From: a virus
Taxonomy: Duplodnaviria > Caudoviricetes
DNA: 33,977 bases
Direction: 5' to 3' (one strand)
IMG/VR virus record: IMGVR_UViG_3300047272_000220
Location: 1-33,977 of that record
The position numbers and the translations under genes were made by a program. Below, one piece after another: positions 2,731 through 21,556 of the stretch; the stretch's first letter is position 1; the number at the start of each line of letters is the position of its first letter. The notes beneath the pieces are model-generated. The model was given only the letters and a program-made list of their open reading frames with translations. It made no database searches and was not told where the DNA came from.

Positions 2731-3185
2731 TTTGCGCCCTCCAGATGCGTGTGTTGGACGGCCTCCAAAGCCAAAGCCGGTGCAGGGACGGTGTACATGT
2801 CCCAGATGGTCTTCGGGTCGGTCTCGTTTGTGGGGTTCGCGTGGAAGGTGGTCACTTCAACATCGGTGAGCGCAACGCCAGCACGCTTGGTATTGGGTTT
2901 AGTGACGCTCATGAAGCCGGGGCCGACCTTGGCCGAGCCGTCGTCAGTGGTGACGATCAGGTGGCCTTTGCGAACAACGAAAAAGGACTCGTCCTTGTGC
3001 ACTGCGCCGGTCAGGACTGTGCCAGCCGGGATGTGCATGGTGCGAGCGTATAGGCCATTGCAGAAGTCGTGATCGACTGGCATCTCAACCTGGGGCAACT
3101 TGAGCAGTTCGGCCTCCAGGCGATAGATCGGCAGGTGCTCTGCTGGCACTTGCTTCTCAATTTCCTGAACCGCGACATTGCTCAT
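2727..3185 (-). CDS. cupin-fold protein
   Basis: HDFCNGLYARTMHIPAGTVLTGAVHK...FVVRKG beta-barrel pattern; start reassigned to ATG 3185 because AGGAG precedes it. Confidence 0.65.
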   Translation of the reverse strand: MSNVAVQEIEKQVPAEHLPIYRLEAELLKLPQVEMPVDHDFCNGLYARTMHIPAGTVLTGAVHKDESFFVVRKGHLIVTTDDGSAKVGPGFMSVTKPNTKRAGVALTDVEVTTFHANPTNETDPKTIWDMYTVPAPALALEAVQHTHLEGAK

Positions 3186-8305: not shown

Positions 8306-8475
8306 CACTTGGCCTTTTTCTTTGGTGCTTTGCTTGGCTTGCCTGCTGCCTTGGCTGCTTTCTCGGCTGTGCTGAGAGCAATAGCCACGGCTTGCTTCAT
8401 TGGCTTGCCAGCCTTCTTTTCCATCTTGATGTTCTTGCCGATGGATTTACTCGAGTAACCTTTGGTCAGTGGCAT
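8305..8475 (-). CDS. small Lys-rich phage protein (56 aa)
   Basis: Below the ORF-track cutoff; MPLTKGYSSKSIGKNIKMEKKAGKPMKQAVAIALS..., RBS GGAGAAGG. Confidence 0.7.
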   Translation of the reverse strand: MPLTKGYSSKSIGKNIKMEKKAGKPMKQAVAIALSTAEKAAKAAGKPSKAPKKKAK

Positions 8476-9209
8476 GGTGCCTTCTCCTGTTTTCGTTTCT
8501 CACGGGCCAGTTGCATGGATGCAAGGCGCTTCGCACGGACAACTGGGTCTTGCCACGAGCTTGCCGTCTTGCCTGCGATTTTCTGCTTTGTGCTGTCGTC
8601 GCGCAATGAGCGTTTACGAGCCTTGGCCGAAGCACTCATCTTGGCGCGTGTTTCGTTCGATCGTTCGTAGGCCAGTTTTTGCTTTGTCTCATCGGACATT
8701 GCATAGCCTGATGCCTTTCGATCATCCCACCAAGATTTGACTTGTTCTGATCTTTTGGCACGCCGTTCGTCATTCCAGCTGGCTTTCAGGCCGTCTGAAA
8801 CTTTCTCACGGTATTGCTCGTTTTGCCACTGCTTTGCTGTCGCTTCCGACCATGCAGAGGTGTCAGCATGCTTTCTGCCTTTTGCCTTGGCAGAGATTTT
8901 CAGTGCAACTGATGGGCTTTTTGATGGGGCAGTTTCGCCGCCTGCTGTCACGTTGTAGCCAAACGGCACAAGCGTTCCAACGGCAATGATGGCTGCTTTT
9001 TCTGCTGCATGAAGTTCATCATGCGTTGCAAACTCTCCAACAACAGTGACCACTGGCTCGCCATGCTTGCGCCATGCGCAATGCACCGGAAGCTGACTTC
9101 CTCGCTTTGCTGCTTGACGGTGTGCTGAAAGGCGAGTGTTCATTGTTCTTGTGGTTTGTCCGATGTAGGCCTTGCCTGATGCAAAAACCAGCTTGTAGAG
9201 AATGTGCAT
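8466..9209 (-). mobile_element. free-standing GIY-YIG homing endonuclease with NUMOD3-like repeats
   Basis: HILYKL...KAYIGQT...R...E...GYNVTAGG catalytic domain; C-terminal SDETKQKL, SNETRAKMS and DSTKQKIA repeats; inserted right after the coat gene. Confidence 0.85.
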
Positions 9210-15117: not shown

Positions 15118-15589
15118 CCTTGGCCGCGATGATCTGCGCCAGCACGTCTGTGGATAACTTCGAGGCGTCGATGGTTTGCACTTGCAGCGGGTTTTCTTTG
15201 TCGCCTGCCAACTCCAGCCGGTCGCCGTATTTCTTCGGGGCCAGCTTGGATAAAAGCCACTTTCGGCTGTCCACTTGAAGTTTTCGCTGCTGGATGGCCT
15301 GCCAGTCGCGCTTTCCGTCTCCAGTTTCAGGGACTTCGCTGTCGGCCAGCTCTAGCACATCATTTGCCATGCGCTCGATGAGGTCTTCCCTCGCGTGCGC
15401 GTAATCTTCCGCAAGTTTAGCGTCAGCATCCACCCATCGGTTGAAGGTGCTTTGCGGAACTCCCGCTGCTTGGCAGGCTTTGAAAGCGCTCAGGCCATCT
15501 CGCATCCCTTGCAGGACAGCTTGGCAGATTGCGTCTTTGTCTCGCTCAGGTTTGGCTGTTTTTGTCTTTTCAGTGCGTTTTGTTGCCAT
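15098..15589 (-). CDS. terS: terminase small subunit (Sf6 gp1-like)
   Basis: N-terminal HTH; KLQVDSRKWLLSKLAPKKYGD motif; upstream of terL. Confidence 0.88.
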   Translation of the reverse strand: MATKRTEKTKTAKPERDKDAICQAVLQGMRDGLSAFKACQAAGVPQSTFNRWVDADAKLAEDYAHAREDLIERMANDVLELADSEVPETGDGKRDWQAIQQRKLQVDSRKWLLSKLAPKKYGDRLELAGDKENPLQVQTIDASKLSTDVLAQIIAAKDANAPD

Positions 15590-16322
15590 AGCTTTCTCCT
15601 TGCGTCAGCACTCGCATTGCTCTCGCAGCCACTGCTGGAACCCATCCATTTCCAGTGGTTTTGAGTCCGTCCATCCCTCTGGCCACATCATCAGGATTTC
15701 TTGGCATCTGGGTGTAGTCATCCGCTGATAGAGTCGCATCAATTGCTCTTGCAAATTGCCGTCTGCGTGATTCTTTCGGATCAACTTCAATGGGTTTCGG
15801 AAAGTCCAAGCCTTCCAACTCTGTGCGGTCGGTGTAAGCAACCATGTAAAACCGTGCTCTGTGATGCGCTGCTCCAATGGTTGACGCATAGAACACTCCC
15901 CATCTTGCATCAAACCCCATTCCGGCCAAGTCTCCGAGAACTCTGCCAAGCCCCCTAGAAGTGAGCATTGGCGAGTTTTCCACAAGCACAATTCTTGGTC
16001 GAACTTCACGAATGATTCTGGCCATTTCCACCCATAGTCCAGATCGTTCGCCATCCAATCCTGCCCCCCCCCCGCACTGGCTAATATCTTGGCATGGGAA
16101 TCCGCCAGTGACGACATCGACTGACCCATTCCAAGGTTTTCCATCAAAGGTTCTGACATCATCCCAGACTGGAAATTGGTCGATGACTCCATCTCGCATT
16201 CTGTCAAGCATGATCTGACGCGCTCCGGCATCAACTTCAACAGCGCAGACGGTGCGCCATCCAAGCAGCTTTCCTGCCAAGACGCTGCCACCCCCTCCTG
16301 CAAATAATGCCAGCTCATTCAT
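15570..16322 (-). CDS. C5 cytosine DNA methyltransferase, alpha-type polypeptide (motifs I-VIII and X)
   Basis: LFAGGGG (I), GGFPCQDIS (IV), VENS (VI), HHRAR (VIII), GNGWVP (X); motif IX absent; ATG 16322 after AAGGTG. Confidence 0.88.
   Translation of the reverse strand: MNELALFAGGGGSVLAGKLLGWRTVCAVEVDAGARQIMLDRMRDGVIDQFPVWDDVRTFDGKPWNGSVDVVTGGFPCQDISQCGGGAGLDGERSGLWVEMARIIREVRPRIVLVENSPMLTSRGLGRVLGDLAGMGFDARWGVFYASTIGAAHHRARFYMVAYTDRTELEGLDFPKPIEVDPKESRRRQFARAIDATLSADDYTQMPRNPDDVARGMDGLKTTGNGWVPAVAARAMRVLTQGESYGNKTH
15605..16318 (-). CDS. nested alternative-frame ORF, putative MTase beta polypeptide carrying motif IX
   Basis: 237 aa with no stop, on the same strand in a different frame; TPRCQEILMMWPEGWT matches motif IX; ATGA-coupled to the HNH stop. 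Confidence 0.72.
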   Translation of the reverse strand: MSWHYLQEGVAASWQESCLDGAPSALLKLMPERVRSCLTECEMESSTNFQSGMMSEPLMENLGMGQSMSSLADSHAKILASAGGGQDWMANDLDYGWKWPESFVKFDQELCLWKTRQCSLLGGLAEFSETWPEWGLMQDGECSMRQPLEQRITEHGFTWLLTPTAQSWKAWTFRNPLKLIRKNHADGNLQEQLMRLYQRMTTPRCQEILMMWPEGWTDSKPLEMDGFQQWLREQCEC

Positions 16323-16866
16323 TGTCACCTTTCAGCCTGTTTTTGATTACGTGATAAGCGCCACTTTTTGAGATGTTCAAGAACAATGCAACGTCAGCAA
16401 CTGAAGCGCCGCCATCGACCATTTTTGAAATCACATCTGCCATTGGGTGCTTGGTCTGTTTTGTGCCTCTTTTTTTGTGCCATGGCTTTTTGAAGTTTTT
16501 TGGCCTTGCGTAAGTTCCATGCAATTTTTTGTGCTGCTCATTCTCTGAATGACTTGCCCAAGCAAGGTTTGATGGCGCATTGTTTTGCGGGTTTCCATCA
16601 AGATGCGATGCCTCTTGCTTGCCCTCTGGTAAACCATGAAACGCCATGCACACAAGACGATGGACTGACGTTTTGACACCAGCCCCTGCTTGGCAATACT
16701 GGTATGCGTTCGCCATCCAAGGCTTGAGCTTTTTCCCCTTCAGCATGAAAGCACGTTCAACACCTTTGATCGTTTTCTTCACAGACCGATCTTTTGACCA
16801 GATTTCTCCAAGACTGTTCGCCATGTAACCCCGTGCAATCGGTATGTCTCGCCATTCAATTTCCAT
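16315..16866 (-). mobile_element. NUMOD4-HNH homing endonuclease
   Basis: EWRDIP...YMANSLGEI (NUMOD4), VHRLVCMAF...SHLDGNPQNNAPSNLAW...EN (HNH), C-terminal HTH; AT-richer than its flanks. Confidence 0.88.
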
Positions 16867-18773: not shown

Positions 18774-19207
18774 GTGATCTCTCCGGTCTCTGGGTCAACG
18801 TACTCGGGCGCGGTGAAGCGCACGCCCTGCTGCGCACCGAAGGCCTCGATCAAGTCCTGCAGCTCGCTCATCTCGGGCTTGGTCATCTTGCTGGTGGACT
18901 TGCCGAGCACCACAAAGCCACCATCGATGCCTGGCACGACGTCCTGCTTGGTCATCGAGGCGGTCATCACGTGCTTCCATTCCTCAGCGCTCAGCTTGCG
19001 ACCGTACCAGTCGACCTGCTTGGCCACATCGGTCAACATCGCCCACAAACGCGCATTTTGTGCGAGCGTGCGGGTTTCAGGCTTGATCTCCACCACCATG
19101 CGGTGGCCAGCCATCAGCAGGGACTTGAGCAGCGGCCAGATCTGCTGCGTCAGGACTTTGTGGGCCTGCACCGGCTCCCAAAGGGTGAATCGTTGGCGTT
19201 AGGTCAT
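18770..19207 (-). CDS. ninB: NinB-family recombination protein; in-frame TAA at codon 3 from the coupled ATG
   Basis: RTLAQNARLWAML...WK...VPGIDGGFVVLG.STSKM...IEAFGA; ATG ACC TAA CGC at 19207-19196; alternative GTG at 19171. Confidence 0.8.
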
Positions 19208-19653
19208 AAAAGTCCAAGCATTTGGTTGGTCACTGCCTTGTTGCCATATTCAGAAACAACAGCAACGTCGTATGCTTTTGCAGCATCCTGTTCAGAACGG
19301 AAAAGACCAATATATTTTTTATTGACGCAAACCTGCCATCCGTTTTTATGCTTTGCAACGCCTTTGTATTTGCTTGAACTACCTCTGGCACCTCTATTTA
19401 AGGCATTCAAACTGGCATCAACAATTCGCAAATTTTCAAGCCGATTATCGAGCCTGTCTCGGTTGATGTGATCAACTATTTGCCCAGGTTTTGCGCCAAT
19501 AATTAGTCGATGCATTGCAAAAATCTTGCCGCCGCTTTTTGCGATTGCATAGCCATCAGGACATTTTTTCCATGATCTTCCAAGTATTGCTTGAATCGAT
19601 GCTGAATCAATTAAAGCAATCTCTCCGTGCTTCAAAACCACTTTAGTGATCAT
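19204..19653 (-). mobile_element. HNH-AP2 homing endonuclease
   Basis: MHRLI...VDHINRDRLDNRLENLR (HNH); SSKYKGV...YIGLF...AAKAYD (AP2); AT-rich. Confidence 0.88.
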
Positions 19654-19909
19654 TTGATTCCCTCCCGGACTGCGATCCAGCACTCGTCGAGGCTGAGGGG
19701 TGTTTCGTCAATGCCTGGCGGACGGATTCTAAGATGCGCTCCCGGCCAGGGTTCTGCGGGAACCTGTCGATGGCCGCCAGCATCCCGGCTGCCGCCTGTT
19801 TGTTCGGACGGGCGCTCAGCACCAGCCGGGTGCAGCACGACAGGCATCCAAAGTGATACTGGCCGGACAGCGGGTTCGTTGCGTGGGCTTGGCAGGCTGT
19901 GCATGTCAT
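19643..19909 (-). CDS. hypothetical Cys-rich protein
   Basis: MTCTAC...GCLSCC; ATGA-coupled to the upstream stop at 19906. Confidence 0.55.
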   Translation of the reverse strand: MTCTACQAHATNPLSGQYHFGCLSCCTRLVLSARPNKQAAAGMLAAIDRFPQNPGRERILESVRQALTKHPSASTSAGSQSGRESNDH

Positions 19910-20436: not shown

Positions 20437-21115
20437 TGTCGAACACCCCATCAAAGATCGCCCGAGCTGCTGCAGCGTGCTTGTGCTCAGTGCGGCCAGC
20501 CGTCCGGGCTTGGTTCTGCCTTCTCACCCAGTTGCGCCAGGTTGCGTCCCAGTCGGTCTTGACGCCCTTCTGGCCAGGCTGTGCGATCCAGTAGTCCCTG
20601 AACTCGTCGAACACCTGTCTGGGAACAAGGTCTGGCCGTTCCTGTTTGCAAAACTCAAACCAGTCTGGCGGAAGAAGACAGTCTGCTGGCAAGCGCGTGC
20701 CGCGCTGCTTTGTCTTCTTGTGTTCTGGGTCTTGTGTTATGTGTATTGTGTCTTGTGTAGCATTGCTTTCGCTATGCGTTCGCATTGCGTTCGCATCTCT
20801 TTGCTTGCTCCACCGGGCCTTGGCGCTCTCGCTGGCCTTGCTGGACTTCTCACCAGCCCTGGCGATTTCCTGATCTGCCCGGTGGTTTGCCCATCCGGTC
20901 TCAGTGCGAATGAAGAACTCCTGCAAAACGACCGCAATGCAGTCGGTATGCGTTCGCATCCGAATCAGGCGTGCGATCTCGCTGGTTTCCAAAGGCAAAG
21001 GGGTCTCGTGAAGGTAGTACCAATCGAGCATGCGTCGATAGGCCAGGTCTTCAAGATCGGAAAGGTGCTCAGTGTGGCTTTTGTAGTCGCCAATATTGAA
21101 CTGGTAGTAGTGCAT
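20429..21115 (-). CDS. replication initiator, YdaU/DUF1376 family
   Basis: MHYYQFNIGDY...HLSDLEDLAYRRMLDWYY; C-terminal FRDYW...KTDWDATWRNWVR. Confidence 0.88.
   Translation of the reverse strand: MHYYQFNIGDYKSHTEHLSDLEDLAYRRMLDWYYLHETPLPLETSEIARLIRMRTHTDCIAVVLQEFFIRTETGWANHRADQEIARAGEKSSKASESAKARWSKQRDANAMRTHSESNATQDTIHITQDPEHKKTKQRGTRLPADCLLPPDWFEFCKQERPDLVPRQVFDEFRDYWIAQPGQKGVKTDWDATWRNWVRRQNQARTAGRTEHKHAAAARAIFDGVFDNE
20717..20796. repeat. putative replication origin: 6 tandem 7-mers plus 3 tandem 11-mers
   Basis: CTTGTGT-like x6 (20717-20758); TGCGTTCGCAT at 20775 and 20786, a degenerate copy at 20764 and another copy at 20949. Confidence 0.6.
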
Positions 21116-21205
21116 CGTTACCTCACATCATCGGTAGTCATCACGAAAGAATCAGCGGCAGGACGGTGATGAGACGTCTTTTCGGGAGCTACCCTAGCCG
21201 TGATT
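21116..21205 (-). ncRNA. candidate structured cis-regulatory leader (multi-stem plus pseudoknot)
   Basis: AAUCA/UGAUU, CGGC/GCCG and GACG/CGUC stems; loop UCAUCAC complementary to downstream GUGAUGA. Confidence 0.55.
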
Positions 21206-21212
21206 GCCACTC

Positions 21213-21241
21213 AATTTACCTCAGACCAAAAGGCCATTCAA
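21213..21241 (-). promoter_or_regulatory. sigma70-like promoter for the replication operon
   Basis: TTGAAT-17-TAAATT overlapping the 3' end of the HTH gene. Confidence 0.6.
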
Positions 21242-21433
21242 GGATTTTCTGAAGCCTGGGCCGAACTTTTTGTCCAGCACCGGCCGCCATTTGTGCGCCA
21301 CGCCATTGCGCGTCCAAGCCTCTACAGCCTGGCCACTGGTGGCTCCCAAGGCCTGCGCCACTGCCTTGTAGGAGCCGAGGCTCTCACGGGCAAAGGCCAG
21401 CACCTGTGCGAAATATTGGTCGTCTTTCTTCAT
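21221..21433 (-). CDS. Cro-like HTH regulator
   Basis: 70 aa; SYKAVAQALGATSGQAVEAW HTH; first gene at the divergence point. Confidence 0.7.
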   Translation of the reverse strand: MKKDDQYFAQVLAFARESLGSYKAVAQALGATSGQAVEAWTRNGVAHKWRPVLDKKFGPGFRKSLNGLLV

Positions 21434-21556
21434 GCCTCAAACTTTACCACGATTTTGCATGATTCGTGCAAAAATATTTTTTGCCACTTACGCAAAATCC
21501 TCTTGCACTATGCTATGATTCGTTTCACCAACAACCAACCACGAAAGGTGAACTCG
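21434..21556. promoter_or_regulatory. divergent promoter/operator region
   Basis: AT-rich; leftward TTGCAC-19-(TGg)TAAAGT, rightward TGcTATGAT (21511-21519); palindromes TTTTGCA-N7-TGCAAAA (21453-21473) and TTTTGC-N7-GCAAAA (21479-21497). Confidence 0.65.

Follow-up and report, generated by a model that had tools for sequence, protein, structure and literature searches.

The window, i.e., the whole 33,977-nucleotide (nt) stretch of DNA analysed here, belongs to a virus record that is 98% complete and carries on its minus strand a leader that is flanked by a cro-like open reading frame (ORF) of 70 amino acids (aa; 21433-21221, minus strand) and by a DUF1376 gene (21115-20429, minus strand). 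The DUF1376 gene under the leader encodes a 228-aa protein of the phage primosomal or replication-initiator type (Pfam PF07120, E = 6e-23), which in PHROGs matches a primosomal protein (E = 2e-36) as well as a replication initiation protein (E = 5e-11). The 70-aa ORF 5' of the leader is termed cro/YdaS-like from its position and from a weak YdaS match (E = 0.042, below the cut-off), and a comparison with PHROGs gave no match for it. The ERF and YqaJ recombination genes and an SSB gene run in the opposite direction to the leader and initiator; where the cro-like ORF and the recombination genes diverge, the control region contains a perfect inverted repeat with U runs (21453-21473), which may represent either an operator or a bidirectional terminator, and no CI-like repressor ORF was evident in this region from the ORF list of the window. 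Elsewhere in the window, two long ORFs of 252 and 237 aa (15570-16328 and 15605-16318, both on the minus strand) overlap in different frames, and the former looks, by eye, like a cytosine DNA methyltransferase.

All parts of the leader described here are on the minus strand. The predicted promoter consists of a -35 element, TTGAAT (21236-21241), located within the last codons of the upstream cro-like ORF, and, 17 nt away, a -10 element, TAAATT (21213-21218), with a predicted transcription start at about 21205-21206. Closing stem P1 is formed by the 5' strand AAUCACGGC (21197-21205), assigned by covariance-model alignment, motif placement, and stem covariation, and the 3' strand GCCG-C-UGAUU (21150-21159), which pairs with 21205-21197 and in which C21155 is bulged; the pyrimidine linker CUUUC (21145-21149) follows directly. 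Hairpin P2, GGG-UAGCU-CCC (21184-21194), has the loop UAGCU (21191-21187), and the palindrome AGCU in this loop (21187-21190) is a predicted site of kissing from copy to copy. The conserved strand GAAAA (21179-21183) makes up a three-way junction together with UA (21196-21195) and CU (21161-21160), and hairpin P3, GACG/CGUC (21162-21178), carries the guide loop UCUCAUCAC (21174-21166). Target T1, GUGAUGA (21138-21144), is a 7-bp partner of the P3 loop (-8.7 kcal/mol) and a predicted decoy or pseudoknot; target T2, GAUGAUGUGAG (G-a-UGAUG-u-GAG; 21122-21132), is a bulged partner of the same loop (-6.5 kcal/mol). The ribosome binding site (RBS) GAGGU (21120-21124) precedes the initiator start codon ATG, which motif placement puts at 21115.

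A previous sequence-only reading had named a number of these motifs, including TTGAAT-17-TAAATT, the hairpins, and GUGAUGA, and all of them lie on the minus strand where it had placed them. The pairing of its closing stem is likewise present, except that G21194 is part of the first hairpin; the P3 loop that it gave as UCAUCAC does pair with GUGAUGA over 7 nt, within a loop that is actually 9 nt long; and its second target is present and covaries among relatives, but overlaps the RBS, with which it shares GAG, rather than abutting it. The palindromic P2 loop had been missed.

Taken alone, the sequence of the window makes a weak case for structure, and the evidence beyond chance comes from relatives. 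While the 57-nt core is predicted to fold as drawn (-14.9 kcal/mol), a 171-nt region folded no better than its shuffles (z = +1.63; 195 of 200 shuffles were as good), and longer windows give other folds because pseudoknots lie outside the folding model. The self-duplex of the P2 loop UAGCU amounts to only -2.9 kcal/mol. A scan of the window did not call P1 and the following U-rich run as a terminator. With regard to transcription, contigs from 4 of 23 listed RNA runs were considered; contigs of relatives span the leader (X8, 20877-21304; X7, 20957-21253) and extend upstream of the predicted start, but carry no strand, start, or end information, possibly derive from DNA, and are given no weight here.

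The int-alpA family and its occurrence before unrelated genes

The sequence-only reading had been unable to assign the leader to a named family, which proved wrong: an Rfam scan identified int-alpA (RF02996) at 21138-21204 on the minus strand with 35.9 bits, marginally above the gathering cut-off of 35.8, in a match that covers the full model (positions 1-71; E = 1.2e-5 on 801 nt). Close relatives of the leader score up to 43.4 bits, and above-cut-off matches were found at the leader itself in 6 of 20 related loci scanned with Rfam, with three more matches elsewhere; members with a long P2 mostly fall below the cut-off. No other Rfam family was credible at the leader at E values up to 10, and there was no ribozyme, C4-type, or PK-repZ match. 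In the RF02996 alignment, all three stems of the three-way junction pair without any non-standard pair being marked, and the leader shares with int-alpA the junction bases of its core (CUAG, GAAAAG, and CCUG). The window copy differs from its namesake in position, as it heads a DUF1376 initiator and follows a cro-like ORF rather than lying in the interval from integrase to alpA, and, while Rfam types RF02996 as Gene; sRNA, the element behaves as a leader, with relatives lying at a fixed distance from a start codon. In the RF02996 consensus itself, the loop CCUU matches the tail AAGG and the P2 loop contains ACGU; the model ends at T1, which leaves T2 and the RBS outside. The int-alpA motif is attributed to Weinberg et al. 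2017. We found no functional study of the motif in the open-access literature. In the main-text passages of PMC5737381, the motif is not named and palindromes are not mentioned, and the excerpts of PMC12370729 and PMC13612085 contain nothing on its function. The leader in the window is a real conserved leader RNA and a member of the catalogued orphan family int-alpA, here in an initiator context.

Relatives were collected from two directions. Among 80 DUF1376 loci fetched, 78 had enough upstream DNA, and the int-alpA motif preceded the initiator in 70 of these; by eye, the remaining 8 comprise 3 variants, 1 truncated locus, and 4 loci with other leaders. Pattern scans added at least 120, at least 118, and at least 122 viral loci as well as at least 120 genome loci, so that 561 sources gave 448 raw matches, which filtering by the pairing of P1 and P3, by lengths, and by the junction strand reduced to 263 unique sequences among the matches listed; counts given below refer to distinct sequences, not to independent events on a tree. 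The junction bases, including GAAAA, served as search anchors, and independent evidence for their conservation thus comes only from the Rfam alignment and from the unbiased DUF1376 set, in which they are invariant. The distance from the core to the start codon is mostly 36-45 nt among the matches listed.

The sequence-only reading had proposed covariation upstream of DUF1376 genes as a check, and in these regions and further relatives both the stems and the loop/tail pairing do covary. In a structure-free alignment of 36 short-P2 sequences, 85.5% of stem cells are paired, compared to 61.2% in shuffles (0 of 500 reached the observed value), two-sided changes occur at 11 of 13 stem pairs, and slid structures give only 32-54% paired cells. 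A comparison of G-U with A-C combinations gave mixed results (7 vs. 1 for P1, 11 vs. 6 for long P2, and 10 vs. 23 for the T1 flanks).

In some relatives, int-alpA is replaced by a different leader (L059, L061, and L062, roughly 110 nt upstream of the ATG at 3001, and L589-L610). It combines a long hairpin with a terminator hairpin that has a U run, and the loops of the two hairpins covary and are complementary to each other over 7 nt. This replacement leader was seen in 22 viral stretches, of which 18 are distinct; the 7-bp match was found in 16 of the 18 by script and in the other 2 by eye, and 8 different loop codes occur (self mean 6.6 vs. cross 4.1). Neither L059 nor L061 had an Rfam match, and the element has the appearance of a kissing-loop attenuator that is yet to be described. 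In L049 (2855-3003), a DUF1376 initiator is preceded by a third leader type, also without an Rfam match, which has a long closing stem that ends in a U run and contains inner hairpins; one of its inner segments is complementary to a segment lying upstream.

The promoter claimed by the sequence-only reading has its hexamers as described, scores 8 of 12, and was not called by a promoter scan of the window, but its position is shared by relatives: among 190 distinct upstream sequences, 122 have a -10-like hexamer in the interval 8-17 nt upstream of the core, compared to 5-25 in other 10-nt bins. All 12 close relatives selected by eye keep the -35 sequence TTGA at the 17-nt spacing, to which coding constraint of the upstream ORF may contribute. 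We thus regard this as a putative promoter that is weak alone and positionally conserved; the leader could also be transcribed by read-through from the promoter of the cro-like ORF. On the opposite strand, a consensus scan showed no positional peak of -10 elements within 120 nt downstream (at most 26 of 197 per 10-nt bin), and the promoter scan called no antisense promoter in the window.

A survey of downstream proteins covered 100 of 101 N-terminal types, in a sample biased to DUF1376 by seeding, and identified 12 DUF1376 proteins, 2 HTH_36 proteins, 1 helicase, 28 nuclease-associated proteins (HNH, GIY-YIG, LAGLIDADG, T5orf172, and NUMOD, with two of the matches being weak), 2 others, and 55 without a family; 6 of 12 family-less proteins tested matched replication PHROGs. 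Since the downstream proteins are unrelated, a shared protein product is unlikely to be the signal. Within the window, no int-alpA leader precedes any of the free-standing nuclease-like ORFs (8466-9209, 16315-16866, and 19204-19683 on the minus strand; the last is HNH_3, the others were recognised by eye), the window's own HNH gene included, and no second int-alpA copy exists anywhere in the window. The P3 loop/tail type of the window, UCAUCAC / GUGAUG, heads HNH nuclease genes in related phages (second copies in L023, L012, L066, and L068), a pattern that suggests that leaders may be swapped between nuclease and initiator genes.

An estimated 2100 viral stretches hold one strict int-alpA pattern, and members occur, among the matches listed, in prophage-like loci of several phyla. 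A scan of genome contigs was noisy, with 59 of 120 listed loci passing the structure filter and 37 of 120 having T1; by title, these loci include Alpha-, Beta-, and Gammaproteobacteria, Desulfobacterota-type genera, Acidobacteriota, and Planctomycetota. A related copy was matched by 217 of 5426 Escherichia coli genomes; three inspected copies lie after an integrase gene and two genes before an antirepressor gene, and in E. coli members flanked by an integrase gene and an HTH regulator gene, a context like that of the namesake, both targets recur together with a GACG loop. Among cultured phages, D6E, GF-2, and YPHTV-1 carry the element. The copies of D6E, a deep-sea thermophilic phage in which the element precedes an HNH gene (L564:1495-1580), and of Halomonas phage YPHTV-1 (L566:1493-1585) are nearly identical; if the host of D6E is Geobacillus, this near-identity would mean transfer across phyla.

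Loop pairings within leaders and proposed pairing between them

Pairing of the P3 loop with T1 is maintained by sequences that differ widely. Among the matches listed, a Watson-Crick run of at least 5 pairs with the first tail window was found for 112 of 158 distinct loops, compared to a mean of 9% (maximum 15% in 200 trials) for swapped loop/tail pairs and 5% for an upstream window, and the pairing segments comprise 94 distinct sequences, of which 27 share no 4-mer. A second run of at least 4 pairs, T2, is present for 121 of 158 distinct loops in the matches listed (swapped, 46%, maximum 56%); allowing one bulge, at least 6 pairs were found in 46 of 123 of the listed matches, compared to 9.9 (maximum 16) after swapping. 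Since swapping preserves the Shine-Dalgarno character of the tails, the T2 match is specific. Among the matches listed, T1 ends at a median of 18 nt and T2 at a median of 6 nt from the ATG, T2 overlaps the -14 to -5 window in 60 of 76, and pairing with T1 exceeds pairing with T2 in strength in 71 of 91; the reverse holds in some members (e.g., G001 and G003). Each of 21 distinct loops on 10 contigs with several copies prefers its own tail (the copies in G006 are two identical ones), which is also expected for a structure formed in cis. As a test of the reach of T1 in cis, linker length was compared with helix length and did not rise with it. In the window, pairing with T1 would probably require that the outer part of P1 open.

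As one loop has two mutually exclusive targets, one of which lies on the RBS, translational control is likely.

The P2 loop shows a different kind of constraint. In the 203 of 263 sequences that have a T1 of at least 5 pairs (60 were dropped), 32 of the 55 distinct P2 loops among the matches listed contain a palindrome of at least 4 nt (14.9 in shuffles, maximum 28), and nine different tetramers occupy its centre. When loops of at most 4 nt, in which a palindrome may arise by construction, were left out, 28 of 38 distinct loops of at least 5 nt in the matches listed were palindromic, compared to 11.6 in shuffles (maximum 24; 0 of 5000), and a shuffle-and-refold control gave a proportion of 0.34 vs. 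0.74 observed. By comparison, only 14 of 113 P3 loops among the matches listed are palindromic. Of the 28 palindrome-bearing loops, 23 have a larger number of free bases on the 5' side of the palindrome than on its 3' side, and 107 initiator leaders with a long P2 combine one P3 type with up to 6 different P2 loop cores. The 77 of 203 members without a 4-nt palindrome mostly have GACG, UUAGC, or UUGCUA loops with a 2-bp core; GACG is the commonest non-palindromic loop (26 of 203 among the matches listed), and 5 members have GNRA-type loops. According to excerpts of PMC7357161, GACG loops dimerise through 2 bp in MoMuSV. Since a 4-nt palindrome is unable to pair inside its own loop, we infer that its partner is a second molecule. 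P2 has a self-complementary loop kept through compensatory change, as in a kissing-loop homodimer, and the palindromic loop points to RNA-RNA dimerisation.

Candidate mechanisms of control

We propose, with a probability of roughly 45%, that an int-alpA leader represses its own translation when two RNA copies pair. On a lone transcript, the P3 loop would be held by T1, the site that is transcribed earlier and mostly pairs more strongly, leaving the RBS open. As transcripts accumulate, two leaders would kiss through their P2 loops, and the P3 loop of the partner could then pair with T2 and block the ribosome. A short transcript ending at the U-rich run after P1 would make the best partner, as it would lack T1 and have its P3 loop free; a U-rich run (at least 5 U in 8 nt) follows P1 in only 53 of 91 of the matches listed, which fits this step poorly. 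The members that lack a 4-nt palindrome and the weak self-duplex of UAGCU in the window also speak against the model. The P2 palindrome and the P3 loop would form a two-part private address, and the outcome would be a protein-free negative dose feedback on dose-sensitive genes (i.e., initiators and homing-type nucleases). More tentatively, int-alpA leaders may allow phages and islands to sense RNA concentration without a protein, with palindromic kissing followed by silencing of the partner RBS through an address-coded loop. One promoter would then suffice for copy-number feedback and, possibly, for exclusion of co-infecting phages that have the same two-part code, and an antisense gene of its own would not be required.

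A single transcript might also suffice, with the P3 loop moving between T1 (RBS open) and T2 (RBS closed) under the influence of folding kinetics or of a host protein or small ligand at the conserved junction, and with the P2 palindrome being a protein-binding or structural feature. Covariation of T1 and T2 requires no second molecule, and both the invariant junction in the DUF1376 set and the members lacking a 4-nt palindrome favour such a purely intramolecular switch; it leaves the mutual replacement of nine palindromic tetramers in P2 unexplained, however, and the downstream genes have no common pathway to suggest a ligand; we consider it less probable than dimerisation but a serious rival. 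A role of P1 and the U-rich run as a terminator, with loop/tail pairing or ribosome loading tuning read-through or polarity, is improbable: the run is missing in 38 of the 91 sequences, T1 and T2 would be transcribed only beyond the putative stop and thus could not take effect earlier in cis, and the site in the window was not called as a terminator, even though the run is present in the other 53 and other relatives have a clear terminator hairpin at the same position. The likeness to plasmid rep pseudoknots that the sequence-only reading had drawn holds in part, in that a loop/tail pseudoknot lies just upstream of the initiator RBS, as in ColIb-P9 (PMC4705826, in excerpt). An activating pseudoknot of the repZ type under a separate antisense RNA nevertheless appears very unlikely, given that -10 elements peak on the sense strand (122 of 190) and not on the antisense strand (at most 26 of 197), that the window has no leader peptide between the transcription start and the ATG, and that T1 and T2 are direct repeats, so that T1 does not mask the RBS; the element also stands before nuclease and island genes and is therefore not specific to initiators.

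The sequence-only reading had further suggested either a cis-acting switch or a processing element. Covariation strongly supports the former insofar as it concerns the leader, the pseudoknot, and the RBS target, whereas self-cleavage or processing found no support. A small junction with a pseudoknot and an invariant core that is present in several phyla could in principle be self-cleaving or be cut by a nuclease to release a short RNA, similar to the maturation of the P4 CI and P1 C4 RNAs, which are processed by RNase P (PMC5499578, in excerpt); against this stand a pseudoknot sequence that varies freely and the lack of any ribozyme or C4 family match at E values up to 10, and we give such a maturation little credence. 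The slightest probability attaches to an element acting as DNA, in which the palindrome of P2 would serve as an operator or a methylation site and the stems would be DNA hairpins. Palindromes are typical of dimeric DNA-binding sites and the G-U comparison is not clean, yet covariation of loop and targets is linked to the RBS and hence to one strand, phages whose hosts are unrelated share the same P2, which also precedes free-standing nucleases, and nine different tetramers suit no single enzyme.

Comparison with known systems

Control of repZ by Inc RNA in ColIb-P9 (PK-repZ) resembles the proposed mechanism in that a hairpin loop pairs near an initiator RBS and copy control operates at the RNA level (PMC4705826, in excerpt). 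The ColIb-P9 pseudoknot activates translation, depends on translation of a leader peptide, and is prevented by an antisense RNA encoded separately (PMC4705826, in excerpt). In contrast, the leader in the window has one loop with two targets, shows no antisense promoter, and has no PK-repZ match in Rfam. The C4 RNA of P1/P7 and the CI RNA of P4 are short and structured; each is released from a transcript that also contains, just downstream, the target it represses. The leader in the window has no C4 match, and both of its targets lie downstream; C4 and CI are not known to include a palindromic docking loop. HIV-1 DIS represents another type of system, the retroviral kissing-loop dimerisation signal. 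The kissing loops of retroviruses (e.g., the GACG loop of MoMuSV, which is also one of the int-alpA P2 variants) resemble P2 in having a self-complementary loop with more free bases on the 5' side; they share no homology with int-alpA and serve genome packaging (PMC7357161, in excerpt), whereas the loop in the window belongs to a bacterial translation leader.

This comparison turns an orphan motif into a sharp test, with a leader of about 95 nt and three mutable pairings. If driven by dimers, int-alpA leaders would add to the few natural examples of bacterial regulation through RNA homodimers, would represent a new route to the control of phage replication, and would supply a ready set of orthogonal RNA feedback parts. 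They would also explain how homing nucleases, which are toxic, can move from host to host together with a brake of their own.
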